Below, one piece after another: positions 1,422 to 18,289 of a stretch of DNA of 18,835 bases. The notes beneath the pieces were generated by a model. That model was not told where the DNA came from, searched no databases, and saw only the letters and a list, made by a program, of their open reading frames with translations. Made by a program: the position numbers and the translations under genes. The stretch lies in IMG/VR virus record IMGVR_UViG_2529292922_000019. One strand, 5' to 3'. Positions within the stretch are counted from its first letter, which is position 1, and each line of letters opens with the position of its first letter. This DNA is from a virus. Lineage: Duplodnaviria; Heunggongvirae; Uroviricota; Caudoviricetes.

Positions 1422-3893
1422 TTAAAAATCAGCCTGATTCGGGATCAGTTTTTGCCAGATAACTGAAACGTATTTTGCTTGGTAACGGGCGTCATCAAGT
1501 GCATTATGGCGCTCACCTTCGAATGGAATAGCCGTTCTGGCATCGAAGTCTATGGCTTTCCCCAGCTCAACGATTGTGCGTACATCGCGATCGTTGTAGT
1601 AACGCCACGGGCAGGGGATCCCCTGCCGTTCGTATGAACGGCGCAAAATCGTGTTGTCGAAGTTGGCTCCATTTCCCCAGACCTGAACAAAAAATTCACC
1701 GGAGTTTTCGTCGATAAATTCCCGCAATTGTAACAGTGCATCATCTAACGGGATTTCATCGGTCATAATGGCAGATTGCGCTTCGCGTGATTGCTTAAGC
1801 CACCATTTAATGGTGTCCCGATCAATGACCCCGCCAGCAGTTTCCAGATCGATAGTCTTACTAAATTCCGGTCCCATATCTCCGGTTTGCGGATCGAAAA
1901 ATATTGCACCTATTGAGATGATCGGGGCATCAGGATTTTTTCCCATGGTTTCAAGGTCGATCATTAGATGGTCACACGTCCTGCTGGTGGATGTGATTTC
2001 GTGATGACCGTTCACCTTAATTGAGTGATCTGCCGTCTCGCCAGTTTCATTATCGCTATCGTGATGCTGATTGCCGTCAGTGTTCTCCTTGTGTGGATGT
2101 TCAGCGCCTTCCATTTCCTCCGGATCATCTTCCTGAACTTCAACCTGATACTCTTCATCGAATGTTTCCTGGTATGTTGCGTCGCCCATCACCGCGCCAC
2201 AATCAGGGCAGTTGCCGCCGCCGGTCTGACCGCAGGCGGTGCAGACTTTTTCCACTTCCTGTTGCGCCACTGGTTCAGGCTGTTTCGTTTCTGGCTCGTT
2301 TTGTAACGCATTTGGGCTGTTTTGTTCCGCTTTCTGGCCGTTCTGTTCCGTTTCTTGCTGGTTCTGATTCACTGAATCGCGGGTTTCAATCCCCTTCACC
2401 CATTTCGGATCATTCTGGTCGCTAATCCCTGCAACAAATTCTCCGCGAGAGGCAGCAAGCAACTTATCGGCGTCAGGCTGGCTGATATTGGCTGCCTGCA
2501 TAATTTTGTTTACTTCGTCAGCGGTAACTTTTACCGGCTCTGGTTGTGCGGTCGTGTCAGATGCACCAGTATTTTGTTGTGAACCTGAGTATGTACTGTT
2601 TTTGCGGGCGAAATATTCTTCTTTCGTGATTTCAGTAGCCCCGGCAGCCAGCGCCTTATCCAGACCAGAAAGTTTGTTTGCGCGACCGTATTTTTCGCCA
2701 TCCTTGTCGGTGAAGAGGAAGTAGAACGGCCCTTCACGCTCTACAGATGGTTCGACTTCCACTTTGCATTCGGTTTTTTCGTTGTCCGGAATTGCCGTTT
2801 CCACTGCATCAGTTTCTGGTACTGGCGACGAGAGAGTATCAGTTGCGCTCTGATTTCTTCCTTCATCTTCAAACACGCCCTTTGTAGTCAGGTATTCAGT
2901 AATGTATTTGTTCAGTGCCACAGGGTCTTTGTGAATGTCGATCGGACGTTCACGGACAAGGCCAAAAATAGTCTGGCGGTCGTAGCGAAGGGCATCAGGC
3001 TGTTTGCGCATTGATGCCGAGATACGCTTCCAGTCTTCGCGGTCGTTGTCGATAACTTCATTTTTTGCCCAGCGATGGATGCTGCCGTCAATGTTTCCGG
3101 CATCCACATCACCAGGCCAGAGAGCGTAGGCCAGTTCGTCATCCAGTGTTTTCCATGTCTGCTTGTATTCGCGATGAATGGCAGCAATGACCGGGCTGAT
3201 TTTTCCTGTTGAATTTTCAGTGTGCTGTTGATTGGCTCTGGCGCGGGCGAGATCAACAACAGACGTGTATTTTCCGGTTTCCTTGCGTTCACCTTCGCGA
3301 CGTTTTTTCCAGATGCGCATCTCTGCCTGAATTTCGGGCCATTTGGCACCAGGCTTACATTTATGCTTAACCCACCCGATGGCATGCAGCTTAAGCTCCG
3401 GATACATGGCGTTAACTTCTGGCATTTTCATCAACGCTTCAACGATATGTCCGTCGAATGTTGCCATGTCTTCCTGCAACAATTCCTGTGCGCTAATAAC
3501 CATATCAACGGTGATGTTTTCACATGTGTCGAACTTAACCATGACAGCGTTCGGTACTTCAGGGGCCAGCTTGTCAAAAGTGACGTTCATCGGATCTGAT
3601 TCAGTCTCAACCGGGACAAAGGAAGCAGACTCCTCATCCCAGCGGTTTTCCTGCATATATTCAGCATCCCAGGAATCGAGGGCAGGGCGGGGTATGCCGG
3701 GTTTATCCTCACAGACAATAAATTTATAAGCGCAGTCCTGAGCTGCAGGGAATTGCTCCAGAAATTGCCAATGAAATTTTGCGCGTGCGCGACGCTCATC
3801 ACCAGCTTCAATGGCAGTGGCCACCGCAACAGCGCTATCTTCTTTTATGGCCTGTTCATCAGGAATAGCAGCGCAAATAAAGACTTTACTCAT
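1422..3893 (-). CDS. Large prophage exonuclease with C-terminal DEDDh (DnaQ-like) 3'-5' exonuclease domain; commonly annotated exodeoxyribonuclease VIII-like in lambdoid prophages
   Basis: 823-aa intact ORF. C-terminus carries Exo motifs (IDLETMG; WGNGANFDNTIL; HNALDDARY). Central Q/N/E-rich low-complexity linker and a CxxC-x7-CxxC zinc-ribbon-like motif. Sits in the exo/bet position of a lambdoid early-left operon. Confidence 0.75.
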   Translation of the reverse strand: MSKVFICAAIPDEQAIKEDSAVAVATAIEAGDERRARAKFHWQFLEQFPAAQDCAYKFIVCEDKPGIPRPALDSWDAEYMQENRWDEESASFVPVETESDPMNVTFDKLAPEVPNAVMVKFDTCENITVDMVISAQELLQEDMATFDGHIVEALMKMPEVNAMYPELKLHAIGWVKHKCKPGAKWPEIQAEMRIWKKRREGERKETGKYTSVVDLARARANQQHTENSTGKISPVIAAIHREYKQTWKTLDDELAYALWPGDVDAGNIDGSIHRWAKNEVIDNDREDWKRISASMRKQPDALRYDRQTIFGLVRERPIDIHKDPVALNKYITEYLTTKGVFEDEGRNQSATDTLSSPVPETDAVETAIPDNEKTECKVEVEPSVEREGPFYFLFTDKDGEKYGRANKLSGLDKALAAGATEITKEEYFARKNSTYSGSQQNTGASDTTAQPEPVKVTADEVNKIMQAANISQPDADKLLAASRGEFVAGISDQNDPKWVKGIETRDSVNQNQQETEQNGQKAEQNSPNALQNEPETKQPEPVAQQEVEKVCTACGQTGGGNCPDCGAVMGDATYQETFDEEYQVEVQEDDPEEMEGAEHPHKENTDGNQHHDSDNETGETADHSIKVNGHHEITSTSRTCDHLMIDLETMGKNPDAPIISIGAIFFDPQTGDMGPEFSKTIDLETAGGVIDRDTIKWWLKQSREAQSAIMTDEIPLDDALLQLREFIDENSGEFFVQVWGNGANFDNTILRRSYERQGIPCPWRYYNDRDVRTIVELGKAIDFDARTAIPFEGERHNALDDARYQAKYVSVIWQKLIPNQADF

Positions 3894-4177: not shown

Positions 4178-4362
4178 TGCCAGCATCCTTTTTGTATCGG
4201 ACGTAAACGGGCCAGCATTGAAAGAATGCATATTTTATTTAATAGCTCCCGTTCGTGTTTTCTCTTGTTAATGGCATCTTCAGTAAATACAGGGTTACTG
4301 ATAGTGACACCAATTTCAAAACAACCTTCAGACGTATTAACGTTTGGTAATAACGTTTCCAT
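4174..4362 (-). CDS. dicB: Cell division inhibitor DicB (62 aa)
   Basis: Internal Met of ORF 4174..4467 yields METLLPNVNTSEGCFEIGVTISNPVFTEDAINKRK...KGCWQ, matching remembered Qin DicB almost residue for residue. Lies directly downstream of DicF as in the dicB operon. Confidence 0.8.
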   Translation of the reverse strand: METLLPNVNTSEGCFEIGVTISNPVFTEDAINKRKHERELLNKICILSMLARLRPIQKGCWQ

Positions 4363-5570: not shown

Positions 5571-5723
5571 TCAGTCAGTGTTTCTGGTTAACCAGCGACG
5601 CGCGCCAGCTTCAGTTTTAAACGTTTTGCTTCTGGTATACGTCATCGCGGTAAACGTGCCGTCCTGGTTGGGGAACACGCCACATACCAGAGATTCGTTG
5701 TTGCCAAGATTGAGCATATCCAT
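5571..5723 (-). CDS. ydfA: YdfA-like (DUF1391-type) small protein, about 50 aa
   Basis: Internal ATG preceded by GAGG-N5. Product MDMLNLGNNESLVCGVFPNQDGTFTAMTYTRSKTFKTEAGARRWL resembles remembered Qin YdfA. First gene downstream of the leftward operator region. A longer 77-aa form starting at 5804 is possible. Confidence 0.5.
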   Translation of the reverse strand: MDMLNLGNNESLVCGVFPNQDGTFTAMTYTRSKTFKTEAGARRWLTRNTD

Positions 5724-5904
5724 GTTGACCTCATTTCCCCTTAACGCCGGGGTAGCGGAACAAAAACCTGCTGCATAGTTATTAAAGTTGAACCCTGCCG
5801 TCATGTTCTTACGCCTCGGGCTGGCTACTTAACCCCTGACCACTGCCTGGTAACTCGAAGTATTGCCCTGCATTCTGTGGGGCGGGGTGGGTTGGTATGA
5901 AAAG

Positions 5905-5950
5905 AAGGATACCCATAGGTATTTAAAAGGTAAATACCCATGGGTAAATT
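5905..5950 (-). promoter_or_regulatory. OL-like operator pair (TACC-N4-GGTA palindromes) overlapping a putative leftward early promoter
   Basis: Palindromes ATACCCATAGGTAT (5909..5922) and TACCCATGGGTA (5935..5946, perfect). On the - strand a -35 TTTACC (5948..5943) and -10 TAAATA (5925..5920) with a 17-bp spacer overlap these sites. Confidence 0.45.
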
Positions 5951-5988
5951 TTTGCGGGGTCTTAACTGGTGACTAGTTGTTTGGTGAG

Positions 5989-6407
5989 CTATGATGCGTT
6001 TTGTGCTTTCTTTTTACGGATTTCTTCGTAGATCATATTGTAATACTGTTTTTTCTCTTCAAGAGTTTTTAATAATTTATCCGCTTCACTTTCTGGCAGT
6101 TCGTCTAAGAGATCTAAAAAAATACGTTGTCGTGGCGTTAGAACCCTTGTTTCATAACTGGAGGCTGTGTTCGTTGATGATGAAACGATACCATCCATCC
6201 ATCCCCGGGGTAACCCAAAGGACTCTTCGATAATCTCCACCATATCATCAGCGATCCGTTTTTTCCCTTTTTCCCCTCTGGGTACAACATTCTTGATACA
6301 TAAGAAGGCTCGCGCCCGATCTTTCTGGCCACGTTAACCGCTTTACCATCGCATTTCTCATCACGAATTTTGATGAGTTGCTGTCGTCTAAATTCATATT
6401 TGTCCAT
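5989..6407 (-). pseudogene. DicA/cI-like HTH repressor, reading frame interrupted by a 1-nt deletion in a homopolymer (possibly a sequencing artefact)
   Basis: Two overlapping ORFs (6138..6407 with the HTH; 5989..6243 with a DicA-like C-terminus LTPRQRIFLDLLDELPESEADKLL). One extra T in the T6 run 6259..6264 would fuse them into a single protein of about 139 aa. Confidence 0.65.
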
Positions 6408-6425
6408 AGGTAAATAATAGATGCG

Positions 6426-6478
6426 ATTACCGCAAGGTAAACAACCTGTGGGTATTGACTTTTGTTTACCTGCGGGTG
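6426..6478. promoter_or_regulatory. OR-like operator cluster: three TACC-N4-GGTA-type sites between the repressor and cro-like genes
   Basis: TTACCGCAAGGTAA (6427..6440), AACCTGTGGGTA (6443..6454) and TTACCTGCGGGTG (6464..6476). A -35-like TTGACT lies at 6455..6460. Same half-site architecture as the sites at 5909..5946. Confidence 0.45.
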
Positions 6479-6507
6479 TTCTTTGCTGTGTTTACTAAGG
6501 AGTAGCT

Positions 6508-6789
6508 ATGGAAGAATTAAGAATATTTCTCAATTCTCTTTCGTCAGATGAACAGCGTATGTTTGCATGCGAGTGTGGTACCAGCATCGGTTATCTAAGA
6601 AAGGCATTGAGTAAAGGTCAAGTGTTAGGGGCATCGTTATGTGTCCTTATTGAGCGAGCCAGTAATGGTGAAGTTACACGTCAGCAACTAAGGCCTTTTG
6701 ATTGGATGAATATTTGGCCCGAGCTGGAAGATACCAAAACGTTAACACAACCACTTTCTAGGAGCTTGATTCATGAAAATCAAGCATGA
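6508..6789 (+). CDS. Cro-like / YdaS-family DNA-binding protein
   Basis: 93-aa ORF divergent from the repressor, SD AGGAG upstream. Pattern ...GTSIGYLRKALSKGQ...LRPFDWMNIWPEL resembles YdaS-family Cro analogues (recalled). Confidence 0.6.
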   Translation: MEELRIFLNSLSSDEQRMFACECGTSIGYLRKALSKGQVLGASLCVLIERASNGEVTRQQLRPFDWMNIWPELEDTKTLTQPLSRSLIHENQA

Positions 6790-7198
6790 ACACATCCGCA
6801 TGGCGATGAATGTCTGGGCGCATCCGGACGGCGAAAAAGTGCCGGCTGCGAAAATTACCAAAGCGTATTTCGAGCTGGGAATGACGTTCCCGGAACTGTA
6901 TGACGACAGCCATCCGGAAGCCCTGGCCCGTAATACCCAGAAAATTTTCCGTTGGCTGGATAAAGACACCCCTGATGCTGTTGAAAAAATGCAGGCTCTG
7001 TTACCGGCGATCGAAAAGGCGATGCCGCCTTTGCTGGTGGCCCGTATGCGCAGCCACAGTTCTGAATATTACCGTGAGATCGTCGAACGGAGGGATCGGC
7101 TGGTGAAGGATGTCGATGATTTTGTTGCGTCAGCGGTTGTTTTGTATGACCAGATGAATCGCGGCGGCCCGGCAGGGAATGCTGTGGTGATGCACTAA
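6773..7198 (+). CDS. YdaT-family protein (functional analogue of cII; toxic when derepressed in Rac)
   Basis: 141-aa ORF overlapping the cro-like gene end. N-terminus MKIKHEHIRMAMN...GMTFPELYDDSHPEALARNTQKIFRW matches remembered YdaT. Confidence 0.65.
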   Translation: MKIKHEHIRMAMNVWAHPDGEKVPAAKITKAYFELGMTFPELYDDSHPEALARNTQKIFRWLDKDTPDAVEKMQALLPAIEKAMPPLLVARMRSHSSEYYREIVERRDRLVKDVDDFVASAVVLYDQMNRGGPAGNAVVMH

Positions 7199-9201: not shown

Positions 9202-9333
9202 AGGCTATAAACCGACTAACAACTAAATACTGAAGATTTAAATCAGAAACGATTTTTATTAAATCCTTAACCGGAGGGATTCCTGCACCCTCAAATCATC
9301 AGGAGGCCGCCCGAAAGGGCGGTGGAGATAATA

Positions 9334-9855
9334 ATGGGAATAACTAAAGAACGATTGTTGGAAATAGCAAACCTTAGTGATTGGGCATTAAGTGATGAGA
9401 GAATTGTTTCTCCTCATGCTTATGAGTCAGTTACAAGTATAGAAATAACAACAATGGCTAGAATGCTGCTTGGTTATTTCAAAATAGAAAATAAAAAACA
9501 GATGGATAGTAATGTTGATATATGTGAGATTTTAGACGATTGGGGGGCTTGGGTTGTGGCTGGTAATAGTTCTATTGATTGGCAGGAAATAGCTGATAAA
9601 TATAAAAATGTTGTTCCTCATGGTAAAAAATCACGTCGTCAGTGCAGCAATGATGAAGGGCGAATTATTGACATTAGTATCCTTAGGTTAGAAAGATATA
9701 AGCAACAAGAATATGAGTTAATTGTTGCTCATTTCGTGATTGGTTTATCTCTTCGTGCTATTGCAAAGCAACAAGGATGTTCAGATGGAACAATTCGTAA
9801 AAGATTGCAAAAAGCCTTAGGTTTTTTGACTGGATATATAGCAATTACCAGTTAA
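9334..9855 (+). CDS. HTH transcriptional regulator with C-terminal sigma-70 region-4/LuxR-like helix-turn-helix (possible late-gene regulator or cargo regulator)
   Basis: ORF 9322..9855; preferred ATG at 9334 with GGAG at 6-nt spacing. C-terminus YELIVAHFVIGLSLRAIAKQQGCSDGTIRKRLQKALGFL is a classic region-4-like HTH. AT-rich codon usage. Stop codon overlaps the stop of the convergent nuclease gene (TTAA 9852..9855). Confidence 0.55.
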   Translation: MGITKERLLEIANLSDWALSDERIVSPHAYESVTSIEITTMARMLLGYFKIENKKQMDSNVDICEILDDWGAWVVAGNSSIDWQEIADKYKNVVPHGKKSRRQCSNDEGRIIDISILRLERYKQQEYELIVAHFVIGLSLRAIAKQQGCSDGTIRKRLQKALGFLTGYIAITS

Positions 9856-14010: not shown

Positions 14011-14370
14011 ATGCTCATAGATTTGGTTTTACCTTACCCGCCGACGGTGAACACTTACTGGCGACGCCGTGGCAGCACATATTTTGTATCAAAAGTCGGT
14101 GAGCGTTATCGCCGTGATGTGGCGCTTATTGTTCGCCAGCAGCAACTGAAATTAAACCTGTCCGGAAGGCCGGCAATAGAAATTATTGCAGAGCCACCGG
14201 ATAAGCGCCGTCGTGACCTGGACAATATCCTGAAGGCACCACTGGATGTACTGACGCATGCGGGGCTGCTCATAGACGACGAGCAGTTTGATGAAATTAA
14301 TATTGTGCGCGGTCAGCTTGTTCCTGGTGGGCGGTTGGGGATAAAAATCACAGAACTGGAGTATGCATGA
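14011..14370 (+). CDS. rusA: RusA Holliday-junction resolvase
   Basis: 119-aa ORF with GAGG SD. Motif PPDKRRRDLDNILKAPLDVLTHAGLLIDDEQ and overall pattern match remembered RusA. Typical position just upstream of Q. Confidence 0.85.
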   Translation: MLIDLVLPYPPTVNTYWRRRGSTYFVSKVGERYRRDVALIVRQQQLKLNLSGRPAIEIIAEPPDKRRRDLDNILKAPLDVLTHAGLLIDDEQFDEINIVRGQLVPGGRLGIKITELEYA

Positions 14371-15056
14371 ATAACCAGTATTTACAGTTTGTTCGTGAGC
14401 AACTCATGATTGCCACCGCCGATTTGAGTGGATCAACAAAAGGGCAGCTTGAGGCCTGGCAGGAGAATGCCATGTTTGATACAGGGCGTTACAGGCGTAA
14501 AAAAATCCGGTACCGCGATGAAGTGACTGGAAAAATGATAACGCGGGATAATCCACCAATCCCGGGAAAGCAATCGCTGGCGAAGGGGGCGTCAATTCCT
14601 CTCGTCAGTCCGGTTGAGTTTTTGACATCATCGTGGCGGCGGGCTGTTCTGTCTCTTGAAGAACATCATAAAGCCTGGTTGTTGTGGTGTTACAGCGGGA
14701 GTATTTGTTGGGAATATCAGATCGCGATAACACAGTGGGCGTGGAATGAATTTAATACTCAATCCGGTACCAGAAAAATTGCTGGGAAAACGCAGGAACG
14801 CCAGAAAAAATTAATCTGGCTGGCGGCGCAGGCAGTAAAAGCAGAACTTTTTGGTGGGGAAGGTTATGAATATCAGGAGCTGGCATTACTGGCGGGAGTG
14901 ACAACTAAAAACTGGTCCAAAACATTTACTCGTCACTGGGTTGCAATGAAACACATTTTTCACCGACTGGATAGTGAGGCTTTATTATTTGTAATGAGAA
15001 CACGTTCAAAACAAAAGGCGGCATTTTCAAAGCAAAGTGTTGCAAAAGTAGATTGA
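14367..15056 (+). CDS. Putative late antiterminator Q-like protein
   Basis: 229-aa ORF overlapping the rusA stop (ATGA). Position between rusA and a terminator/tRNA cluster is the canonical Q slot. Family assignment by context, not by motif. Confidence 0.55.
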   Translation: MNNQYLQFVREQLMIATADLSGSTKGQLEAWQENAMFDTGRYRRKKIRYRDEVTGKMITRDNPPIPGKQSLAKGASIPLVSPVEFLTSSWRRAVLSLEEHHKAWLLWCYSGSICWEYQIAITQWAWNEFNTQSGTRKIAGKTQERQKKLIWLAAQAVKAELFGGEGYEYQELALLAGVTTKNWSKTFTRHWVAMKHIFHRLDSEALLFVMRTRSKQKAAFSKQSVAKVD

Positions 15057-15619: not shown

Positions 15620-17191
15620 TTACTGAGAGCTCAGATCAACTTTCCAGGGCAACAGATCGCGTACCCGGTTTGCCGGCCAGTCCTGGATATGTTCAATGAC
15701 GTAACGCAGCCACTTTTCTGGCTCCACATTGTTCAGACGGCATGTGCCGATCAGCGAGTACAACACCGCCGCATGTTCACCACCGCTGTCGGAACCCGCG
15801 AACATCCAGTTTTTCCGGCCTACGGCCACTCCCCGTAAGGCGTTCTCTGCGATGTTGTTGTCGATTTCCACCCAGCCATTACTGCAGTACACGTTCAGTG
15901 CATCCCACTGTTTCAGCAGGTATGCGAACGCTTTTGCCGTATCTGAGTGACGCGACAGTGTTTTCATCTGTTGCTGTATCCAGTCATACAGTGACTGCAT
16001 CAGTGGCGCGGCTCTGGCTTTTCTTGCCGCCAGACGCTGTTCTGCTGAACAGCACCGGACCTCTGCCTCGATGGCATACAGTTCACCGATACGCTGCAGG
16101 GCTTCCGTGGTGATGTAGGTGGGCGCTCTTGCATGCACATCGTGGATTTTTCTCCGGGCATGAGCCATACACGCGGCTTCCGTTATTCTGCCGGATTCGT
16201 ATAACGCCCGGTAACCACCGTAAGCATCGGCCTGAAGCACACCGCTGTAACCGGCCAGGTGATTTTGTGGATGGATACCTTTCCGGTCCGGACTGTACGC
16301 GAACCAGACCGCCGGGGGCATCTGTGAACCGGCGTTACGGTCATCACGGACGTAGACCCACAGCCGGGCTGTCCGGGTTTTACCGCTGCCCGGCTCCTGG
16401 ACCGGGACGGGGATATCATCAGCATGGACTTTACCGGGCATCAGCACATACTGGCGCAGGACGTCATACAGCGGCTCCAGCAGTTCAGCAACAGCACCTG
16501 TCCAGCGCCCCAGTGTGGCACGGCTCAGCTCCACGCCCTGACGACGGTATATTTCTGACTGGCGGTATAACGGCAGATGGTCTGCATATTTCCCGGTGAC
16601 AACATGGGCCAGAAGCCCCGCTCCGGCATAACTGCGTGCAATGGGTTTTGAAGGTACTGGTGCCTGCACGATATGGTCGCACCGGCAACAGGCCTGTTTC
16701 GGACGTTGTGTTTCGATAACCTTAAAGGCGCTGCTGATAAGCTCCAGTTGCTCTGACACATCACATCCCAGAGAACTGAGTTCACCACCACAGGCAGGAC
16801 AGCATTCCTCTTCCGGCCGGATAACCCGGGTTTCACGGGGAAGTGAGGCCGGTAACGGTTTACGGGCTGAAGACTGGCGCAGGGCGGATGGCAGTACCGG
16901 GTCATATTGCTCACCCAGCGTTTCCGCCATTTCTTCCTGAAGTGCGCTGATTCGCTCCTGTGCTTCCTGTATCTGCCGTTCGGTTTTTGCACGAAGTTTT
17001 TCTGAGCTTTTACCGAACTGCATACGTTGCAGTTTCGCAACCAGCGCCTTCAGCCGGTTGATTTCGGAAGCATAAGCCGCCACCCGCTGTGAGAGCAGGC
17101 GGTTGTATTCAGCCATCTGGCGGATGGTGTCCTGTTGCGTCTGCAACAGTGCCCGCAGGCGGGCGTTCTCATGAGCAAGTGAGGTGTCCAT
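15620..17191 (-). CDS. tnpC: IS66-family transposase TnpC (orf3)
   Basis: 523-aa ORF with N-terminal coiled-coil/leucine-zipper region and a Cys cluster, typical size and layout for IS66 TnpC. Confidence 0.85.
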
Positions 17192-17558: not shown

Positions 17559-18042
17559 CAGTGGCTGCTCCCTTTTATTTCGCGGATAAGTGTCTGTAAT
17601 AACGCCGGCGTCAGTTTACCTTTAAGCCTGAGAGTTCCGGCCGGCAGAACCAGCTCACAACACAGACTGTCGGACGGTGTATTTATCTGCTCTGGTTCCT
17701 GTGCGGGGGCCGGGATTTTATTATCCGGCTCCGGCGTTAACGTCACGGGAAGCAGTGCCGGCATATTTTTCCGGAAGGCAGCAGGCCACCTTTCCGGTAT
17801 TGATGGCGCCAGTTGAAGAGCAGGTTATCGTTGATTCCGTTTTCCCGGGCGATCTGCGCCACACAGGCTCCGGGCTGCAGTGACTGCTCCACTAAGGCGA
17901 TTTTAAACTCATAAGGGAAGTTGGGCCGCCGGGGACGTTTTTTTACCACGGGGGCTTCGGATATAACGGTGCTTTCAGGACGTACGACTGGTACCGTGGA
18001 AAATTGTCCGTAAAGGCAGGCATCAAGTTCCTGCTCCGACAT
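17558..18042 (-). pseudogene. tnpA: IS66-family TnpA (orf1), apparently split by a -1 frameshift at a T5 run (start codon uncertain)
   Basis: HTH-containing frame (..IARENGINDNLLFNWRHQYRKG..) ends at 17743, and a second frame (17558..17764) overlaps the tnpB start as ATGA. One extra T at 17765..17769 would fuse them. Confidence 0.45.
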
Positions 18043-18289
18043 GCCTGCGGGCAAAGGCCACGAAAGGCCAGCTCTCCGAAAGCGCACGAACATACTACAA
18101 ACTGTTGATTTTGGTACACCCAGGCGACGCCCGGCCACAACCCGGGGTAAATGTTCTTCAAAGTGAAGACGTAAAGCTTCAGTGATCCAGGTCCGGTGTT
18201 TCATACGATAGTGTCCATTAAAAATGATGGACATTATTTTTTGTAGAGCCGGAGGAAACAGACCAGACGGTTTTAAATGAGCCGGTTAC

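Follow-up and report, generated by a model that had tools for sequence, protein, structure and literature searches.

Five TACC-N4-GGTA palindromes as probable OR and OL operators of a decayed lambdoid immunity switch in an Escherichia coli prophage

The viral sequence IMGVR_UViG_2529292922_000019 (IMG/VR; Caudoviricetes), a stretch of 18,835 nucleotides that we refer to here as the window, is a defective lambdoid prophage of Escherichia coli, and its immunity region carries five copies of a 12-bp palindrome, TACC-N4-GGTA, that bracket the gene for a phage repressor. In all likelihood, these palindromes constitute the operator set of a lambdoid immunity region, and each dyad would be bound by a dimer of the repressor via its N-terminal helix-turn-helix (HTH) domain, as judged from the positions of the sites in the DNA and from their co-inheritance with the repressor. 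Two of the sites (the left operators OL1 and OL2) are found downstream of the repressor gene, the pair beginning 42 bp past its stop codon, while the other three (the right operators OR1, OR2 and OR3) are located between the repressor ATG (6407, minus strand) and the ATG of a cro-like gene (6508, plus strand); these two start codons are divergently oriented and 100 bp apart. This placement of the palindromes had been proposed in the initial annotation of this DNA and is borne out by our analysis; the coordinates given there were one base early.

Table 1. Operator sites, predicted promoters and genes of the immunity region (positions in the window)
Feature	Position	Strand	Sequence or hexamers	Remarks
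OL1	5910..5921		TACCCATAGGTA, exact	weight-matrix score 19.0; the site nearer the PL start
OL2	5935..5946		TACCCATGGGTA, exact	score 23.1, the best in the window; 25 bp from OL1
OR3	6428..6439		TACCGCAAGGTA, exact	score 16.0; central four bases not YRYR (Y, pyrimidine; R, purine)
OR2	6443..6454		AACCTGTGGGTA, one mismatch	score 4.2; repressor-proximal half-site degenerate
OR1	6467..6478		TACCTGCGGGTG, one mismatch	score 11.3; exact (GGTA) in close relatives
Predicted PL	5906..5934	-	-35 TTTACC (5934-5929), 17-nt spacer, -10 TATCCT (5911-5906)	hexamers read from the sequence; predicted start at about 5899
Predicted PRM	6414..6441	-	-35 TTTACC (6441-6436), 16-nt spacer, -10 TATTAT (6419-6414)	promoter scan
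Predicted PR	6455..6482	+	-35 TTGACT (6455-6460), 16-nt spacer, -10 TGTTCT (6477-6482)	hexamers read from the sequence; predicted start at about 6489
Repressor gene	5989..6407	-		pseudogene in the window
cro-like gene	6508..6789	+		YdaS family, 93 aa; probable second protein binding the same sites
ydaT	6773-7198			YdaT-type cII equivalent
YdaT main operator (OM)	6766-6783		TTGATT-N6-AATCAA, exact	overlaps the 3' end of the cro-like gene as well as the start codon of ydaT

All five sites are present, as had been claimed, but only three of them match the palindrome exactly, while the sites at 6443 and 6467 each deviate from it at a single position. Three exact copies of TACC-N4-GGTA in 18,835 bp compare with an expectation of 0.10, and none of 200 shuffled sequences contained as many; the scan of the whole window against random sequence, which had been put forward as a check on the motif, therefore favours the sites. 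When one mismatch is permitted, ten sites are found in the window, and five of these are crowded into 569 bp in which about 0.11 would be expected (Poisson P(>=5) ~1.4e-7). A weight matrix trained only on loci other than the window ranks the sites at 5935, 5910 and 6428 as its top three matches in the window and that at 6467 as the fourth; the 95th percentile of the best score obtained with shuffled sequence is 14.6. The site at 6467 is an exact TACC..GGTA palindrome in the E. coli strains E2348/69, MLI104K2 and ETEC1703. The extended consensus of the 12-bp dyad reads tTTACC-N4-GGTAAa.

The palindromes are interlocked with three predicted promoters (Table 1), all of which have been assigned from hexamers that are held in a conserved register. 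The -35 hexamer of the predicted repressor promoter PRM lies inside OR3, and its -10 hexamer ends 7 nt before the repressor ATG, a distance that amounts to 6-7 nt in related loci of the same layout. The repressor mRNA is therefore predicted to be leaderless, with its start at the A of the ATG (6407), and the related loci likewise offer no space for a ribosome-binding site. Relative to this predicted start, the centre of OR2 falls at about -41.5 and that of OR3 at about -26.5; lambda CI bound to OR2 activates PRM from a geometry of about -41.5. Leaderless cI mRNAs are known for both lambda and paaR2 (PMC8630535).

The predicted rightward promoter PR can be written as GGTA/TTGACT-16-GG/TGTTCT, where the strokes mark the borders between sites and hexamers; the -10 hexamer of its relatives is TATTCT. 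OR2 abuts the -35 hexamer, and OR1 lies between the two hexamers, overlapping the -10 region by 2 nt. The sequence TCAATACC (the reverse complement of GGTATTGA) is kept beside OR2 in nearly all loci. At the -35 position of PR, strain E2348/69 has TTGGTT where the window has TTGACT. The predicted promoter PL faces leftward into the DUF1391/dicB/exonuclease operon and possesses the minus-strand equivalent of the PR register (GGTA/TTTACC-17-GG/TATCCT): OL2 directly abuts the -35 hexamer, and the last two bases of OL1, read on the minus strand, open the -10 hexamer. The downstream pairs of related loci follow the pattern GGTA/TTGACn-(~17)-GG/TAnnnT, with a promoter directed away from the repressor gene and a -35 hexamer that is usually TTGACn; the position of OL1 relative to the -10 hexamer is the same in about 29 of these loci. 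The initial annotation had noted that the sites overlap a plausible leftward promoter; two such promoters are in fact predicted, one of them PRM-like and the other, PL-like, built into the downstream pair.

The most telling evidence stems from comparisons with other genomes. A scan seeded with the repressor protein and restricted to one genome per species yielded 43 loci from Enterobacterales, Aeromonas, Neisseria, Burkholderiales, Xanthomonadales and others, and these contain 112 exact sites in 218.8 kb against about three expected. Sites at positions -73, -48 and -33 from the repressor ATG are present in 30 loci, a set that counts the phages mEp043 and CharmingMan, and the three classes of sites obey different rules. 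OR1 has an exact core in 28 of the 30 loci, and its central four bases alternate between pyrimidine and purine in 24; the repressor-proximal half-site of OR2 is degenerate in 29 and its centre alternates in 26; the core of OR3 is exact in 21, with an alternating centre in just six. The chance rate of such a centre is one in 16. The window obeys all three rules. A second pair of sites, 25-26 bp apart and downstream of the repressor gene, was detected in about 29 of 45 loci (the 43 genomic loci and the two phages). Phages mEp043 and CharmingMan, whose repressors carry a Peptidase_S24 domain and a DNA-binding domain about 65% identical to that of the window, exhibit three sites spaced by 25 and 15 bp in the gap between cI and cro, and two sites 25-26 bp apart downstream of cI. 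The distant loci keep the positions of the sites to within 1-2 bp even though their flanking DNA can no longer be aligned and their repressors share only 43-80% identity.

Homologues of the YdaS-type cro gene lie divergent from the repressor in most of the genomic loci. Five Klebsiella loci (L009, L011, L012, L013 and L016) have no YdaS-type cro upstream, and unrelated sequence occupies their OR2 position; all five possess the -73 site together with one OL site or an OL pair, and the -33 site, exact in L012, L013 and L016, is degenerate in the other two. Because these loci retain the sites without a YdaS-type cro, we tie the motif to the repressor. Phage Tritos served as a negative control; it shares its flanking genes and its repressor tail with the window but has a DNA-binding domain of the HTH_3 type, and the motif was not found there.

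When the search was reversed, and phage contigs were queried with nothing but the 21 specified bases of the OR2 plus OR3 composite, at least 120 contigs were recovered. Among the matches listed, the repressor DNA-binding domain is encoded immediately downstream of the pattern in 112 of 120 contigs, a YdaS-type Cro is encoded divergently upstream in 112 of 120, and an exact OR1 is found 24-26 bp away in 115 of the 118 contigs that could be scored. Judged by the searches in both directions and by the Tritos control, the specificity of the motif co-varies with the repressor DNA-binding domain. Repressor, cro and motif are thus co-inherited in a fixed promoter register across Gamma- and Betaproteobacteria and phage contigs, a pattern that speaks for the OL/OR-like interpretation already offered in the initial annotation.

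The intact repressor, as it is present in E2348/69 (WP_000362153.1), consists of 139 amino acids. It has no match in Pfam and belongs to PHROG 5736, 'transcriptional regulator'; a sequence search of the PDB with the repressor returned only noise (E >= 0.08), and no Pfam or NCBIfam model was found for its DNA-binding domain (residues 1-72; 6192-6407 on the minus strand of the window, across a frameshift). An AlphaFold model (mean predicted local distance difference test score of 83) shows a helical bundle with an HTH motif (residues 1-72), a disordered linker (77-86) and a C-terminal helical hairpin (92-138). A fold search, the sole route by which the DNA-binding domain can be placed among HTH proteins of the Xre/CI type, retrieved Xre/CI-type repressors, with the Rep protein of a Salmonella temperate phage (PDB 5d50) as the best match. 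The recognition helix is probably the segment ...EPSYVSRMLY..., which is nearly invariant across the repressor family, whose members start with MDKYE... The tail of the protein is homologous to that of the CI protein of phage Tritos; it is helical and DicA-like, and no Peptidase_S24 domain was detected by Pfam in the 139-residue protein. In most relatives, including mEp043 and CharmingMan, the same DNA-binding domain (65-80% identity) is fused to a LexA-like Peptidase_S24 domain. This DNA-binding domain, which is common in phages of Proteobacteria, is thus joined to either of two C-terminal modules, the S24 peptidase domain or the helical tail resembling that of DicA; repressors with the short tail and the same operator layout occur in the window, in E2348/69 and in the loci L006, L028 and L035.

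Taken together, these data allow us to propose how the switch might operate. One repressor dimer would occupy each 12-bp dyad. Occupancy of OR1 and OR2 would shut off PR, and with it cro, ydaT and the replication genes, while occupancy of OL1 and OL2, which are positioned on PL in the same register as OR1 and OR2 on PR, would repress the early-left operon (DUF1391, dicB, exonuclease, xis, int). Since one half-site of OR2 is degenerate, we propose that binding to OR2 depends cooperatively on its neighbour OR1, 24-25 bp away; OR2 occupancy may in turn stimulate PRM. OR3 contains the -35 hexamer of PRM, and we therefore propose that it mediates autorepression at high repressor levels. The order of occupancy would probably be set by the degenerate half-site of OR2, by the lack of an alternating centre in OR3, and by the spacing of 24-26 bp between the paired sites at each promoter. 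The fact that OR3 lacks the alternating pyrimidine-purine centre of OR1 and OR2 suggests indirect readout of the kind known from phages 434 and P22. The YdaS-type Cro protein very probably binds the same sites, by analogy to known switches, presumably with a reversed order of preference, as known from lambda and CP-933P. Because repressors with an S24 domain and those with a short tail use the same layout, the spacing of the sites seems to be set by the geometry of the promoters and not by one particular oligomerisation domain.

Several points weigh against this proposal. Taken alone, the OR2 site at 6443 is a weak match to the motif (score 4.2), and we accept it as a site because a degenerate site holds the same position in 29 of the 30 related loci. 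The PL hexamers are weak as well; they match the consensus at only 8 of 12 positions, and the promoter scan did not report PL for this reason. The comparative linkage does not separate binding of the repressor from binding of Cro at individual sites, and the pyrimidine-purine pattern of the centres is a correlation only. A full-text search of the literature for a TACC-N4-GGTA operator found nothing. Furthermore, with the repressor gene reduced to a pseudogene and OR1 and the PR -10 hexamer mutated, the sites of this genome may have lost their function, except if the repressor is provided by another prophage.

Among the alternative explanations, the one that deserves most attention concerns the OL pair (5910-5946), which might serve mainly as the intrinsic terminator of the repressor transcript and not as an operator. 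On the minus strand (5900-5946), OL2 and OL1 form a perfect 16-bp hairpin that is followed by UCCUUCUUUU; a terminator scan flags the 16-pair stem plus TCCTTCTTTT on this strand, and the predicted RNA fold has a free energy of -22.2 kcal/mol (z -6.0). The hairpin starts right at the 42-bp distance from the repressor stop codon, and inspection of this gap by eye, not by a scan, revealed no other obvious terminator. The hairpins of the window and of E2348/69 are also the strongest among all loci. However, any two similar palindromes can pair with each other, so a hairpin is to be expected as a by-product of two adjacent operators. Elsewhere, the hairpin is weak (-5 to -17 kcal/mol), is often followed by few U residues, and can be situated up to 1.8 kb from the repressor stop, and yet the pair itself, its spacing of 25-26 bp and its register with the -35 and -10 hexamers are conserved. 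In phage mEp043, a canonical terminator distinct from the OL pair is located upstream of it. We therefore consider a primary role in termination unlikely; in this lineage it may at most be an addition to the operator function, and it would leave the conserved pair unexplained.

It could also be argued that the repressor recognizes a different sequence altogether, and that the Cro-like YdaS protein alone, or another factor, occupies the sites. The YdaS-type cro gene does, after all, show the same degree of linkage to the motif as the repressor gene (112 of 120 each among the contigs listed). This explanation is improbable in view of the five Klebsiella loci, which lack such a cro gene and nevertheless retain sites at -73 and -33 plus one OL site or an OL pair, and in view of the near invariance of both the predicted recognition helix and the half-site; in the characterised lambdoid switches, moreover, CP-933P included, the operators of repressor and Cro overlap (PMC8630535). 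We give hardly any credence to the notion that the cluster reflects chance or base composition, or that it has been conserved merely through recent sharing of DNA among prophages. Two other one-mismatch copies in the window (at 6856 and 4338) are plainly incidental, the former sequence being present in Tritos too, and the close E. coli relatives provide no independent evidence because they are more than 99% identical. The shuffled sequences, none of which attained the observed count, and the conservation of the sites in distant loci lead us to reject chance and composition, while recent sharing is countered by the unalignable flanks, the divergent repressors and the nearly fixed positions of the sites in these same loci. 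An operator function of all five sites hence remains our preferred interpretation.

The switch in the window itself is a decayed relic. A slip from seven to six T residues in a homopolymer run (6259-6264) has frameshifted the repressor gene, so that the protein is truncated after about residue 49. The same T6 allele is present in E. coli ETEC1703 and MLI104K2, both of which have an intact PR; in MLI104K2, the repressor gene additionally suffers from a 2-bp deletion further on. A second lesion, an A-to-G exchange at 6478, affects two elements at once, since this base is both the final position of OR1 and the second position of the PR -10 hexamer (TATTCT to TGTTCT); it probably weakens PR. Since the 6467 site is exact in E2348/69, MLI104K2 and ETEC1703, the G at 6478 is a derived mutation. 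In a short-query megablast search, which detects near-identical copies only and hence does not yield population frequencies, not one of 5,426 complete E. coli genomes contained this G, while the ancestral 37-mer was recovered from 17. We had also considered that the mutation in the -10 hexamer of PR compensates for the frameshift, an idea that is unsupported because ETEC1703 and MLI104K2 carry the frameshift together with an intact PR. The decay of the switch bears on any attempt to infer the expression of the potentially toxic genes cro, ydaT and dicB.

In its overall architecture, the immunity region closely resembles that of lambda. In both, divergent genes for repressor and Cro flank three dyad-symmetric sites, OR2 lies near -42 of PRM, the repressor mRNA is leaderless, as predicted for the window, and a second set of operators sits on a leftward promoter beyond the repressor gene. 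The spacing between OR1 and OR2 of lambda is 24 bp, and the pair of sites that brackets a promoter is spaced by 24-25 bp in both systems. The two differ in the length of the operator (17 bp in lambda, a 12-bp core in the window), in the spacing between OR2 and OR3 (23 versus 15 bp) and in the number of OL sites (three versus two). Unlike lambda, furthermore, the window encodes a DNA-binding domain without a Pfam HTH match, a short DicA-like tail where lambda has the RecA-sensitive S24 domain, a Cro protein of the YdaS type, and YdaT in place of CII.

The nearest studied relative of the switch is that of prophage CP-933P from E. coli O157:H7 (PMC8630535, PMC9986795). It shares with the window a short repressor without an S24 domain, a repressor mRNA that is leaderless, as predicted for the window, a YdaS-type Cro, promoters resembling PR, PRM and PL, operators at either end, and a CII equivalent, YdaT, whose main operator (OM) is present in the window as an exact copy in the same place. 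In contrast to the window, however, the CP-933P repressor PaaR2 recognizes the half-site GTTTAGTAA, which occurs in four 18-bp repeats, and a paaA2-parE2 toxin-antitoxin pair follows the repressor gene. The window shows no enrichment of the GTTTAGTAA half-site (seven copies versus 3.8 expected, with one single-mismatch copy near OR), and we have therefore rejected the presence of PaaR2-type operators; there are likewise no toxin-antitoxin genes behind the repressor gene of the window, as the OL pair follows so closely upon its stop codon. The Cro proteins of the two systems are only distantly related (E ~1e-10). In effect, the window represents an immunity swap on a CP-933P backbone.

Other lambdoid systems share individual traits with the window. 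Phage 933W likewise has five natural repressor sites, three in OR and two in OL, but these are 15 bp long and of unrelated sequence, and its cleavable repressor is reported to bind without cooperativity (PMC3317979). DicA from the Qin prophage of E. coli K-12 and the window repressor are homologous over the C-terminal 46 residues (33% identity, E 2e-7), which also match NCBIfam PRK09706, and genes for DUF1391/ydfA and dicB are neighbours in both prophages; however, DicA possesses an HTH_3/Phage_CI_repr domain and different operators, and the DNA-binding domains of the two proteins are unrelated in sequence. In phages 434 and P22, the affinity of the operators is tuned by the shape of the DNA at the central bases (PMC3317979), and in the family studied here the centres differ between the classes of sites; the preferred type of central sequence is not the same as that of 434 and P22, and the likeness amounts to a correlation only. 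A full-text search of the literature for operators of mEp043 yielded nothing relevant. The switch is thus of a kind already known, the classical lambdoid OR/OL switch, whereas its operator motif and its repressor family appear to be uncharacterised.

The data provide an operator map, comprising the motif, the order of the sites, and the predicted promoters and leaderless repressor mRNA, for an immunity type that is represented by numerous E. coli prophages as well as by phages from many Proteobacteria, among them the ompW-adjacent prophage of the enteropathogenic E. coli (EPEC) strain E2348/69. With this map, mutual immunity and cross-regulation among prophages can be predicted, and it accounts for a relative of the CP-933P switch in which the immunity has been swapped. 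The family also represents a natural experiment, as one operator layout is combined with two different repressor tails. We consider it conceivable, although still somewhat short of an even prospect, that the MDKYE../SYVSRMLY HTH family forms a large immunity group of Gamma- and Betaproteobacterial phages with a single layout of three plus two sites and two interchangeable C-terminal modules. If this were true, the geometry of the switch and the order of site occupancy would be written in the DNA, through the degenerate half-site of OR2 and through the pyrimidine-purine centres, which OR1 and OR2 possess and OR3 lacks, and not in a cooperativity specific to each repressor, and phages could alter their mode of induction by exchanging the repressor tail only, an SOS-cleavable S24 domain for a short, non-cleavable DicA-like one or vice versa.

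A few further palindromes were inspected and are not counted as operators. The copy at 6856-6867 lies inside ydaT, has a score of 9.8 (below 14.6) and also occurs in phage Tritos, which is of a different immunity type; the copy at 6401-6412 covers the repressor ATG (score 6.6, again below 14.6); and the one-mismatch copy at 4338-4349 is judged to be incidental. Variants with a longer gap between the half-sites are found in other loci. In mEp043 (L003), a TACC-N14-GGTA sequence (3553-3574) is positioned just upstream of the OL pair, and two Advenella loci with distant homologues of the repressor (L042 and L046) exhibit TACC-N12-GGT(A/G) palindromes upstream of the repressor gene instead of N4 sites.

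The closest matches to the window in complete genomes are 99.2-99.6% identical across 5700-6900; they include EPEC E2348/69, in which the prophage adjoins ompW. To the left, the window encodes an integrase, an excisionase, an 823-residue exonuclease, DUF1482, dicB, a hypothetical gene and the DUF1391 gene, after which the operator/repressor region follows; to the right lie the YdaS-type cro, the YdaT-type cII equivalent, an O-like replication gene, a Ren-like gene, Q-like antiterminators and transposases. Two different Q-like antiterminator genes and two transposase genes are present (9322-9855, 14367-15056, 15620-17191, 17743-18234); the late region is apparently broken up by insertion sequences, which fits a defective prophage. 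The YdaT protein encoded in the window is 100% identical to the crystallised CP-933P protein (PDB 8bt1) over residues 2-141, and the TTGATT-N6-AATCAA sequence near the start of its gene is the footprinted OM operator of CP-933P YdaT (PMC9986795). This OM site is part of the same switch but constitutes a recognition system separate from that of the TACC-N4-GGTA palindromes.

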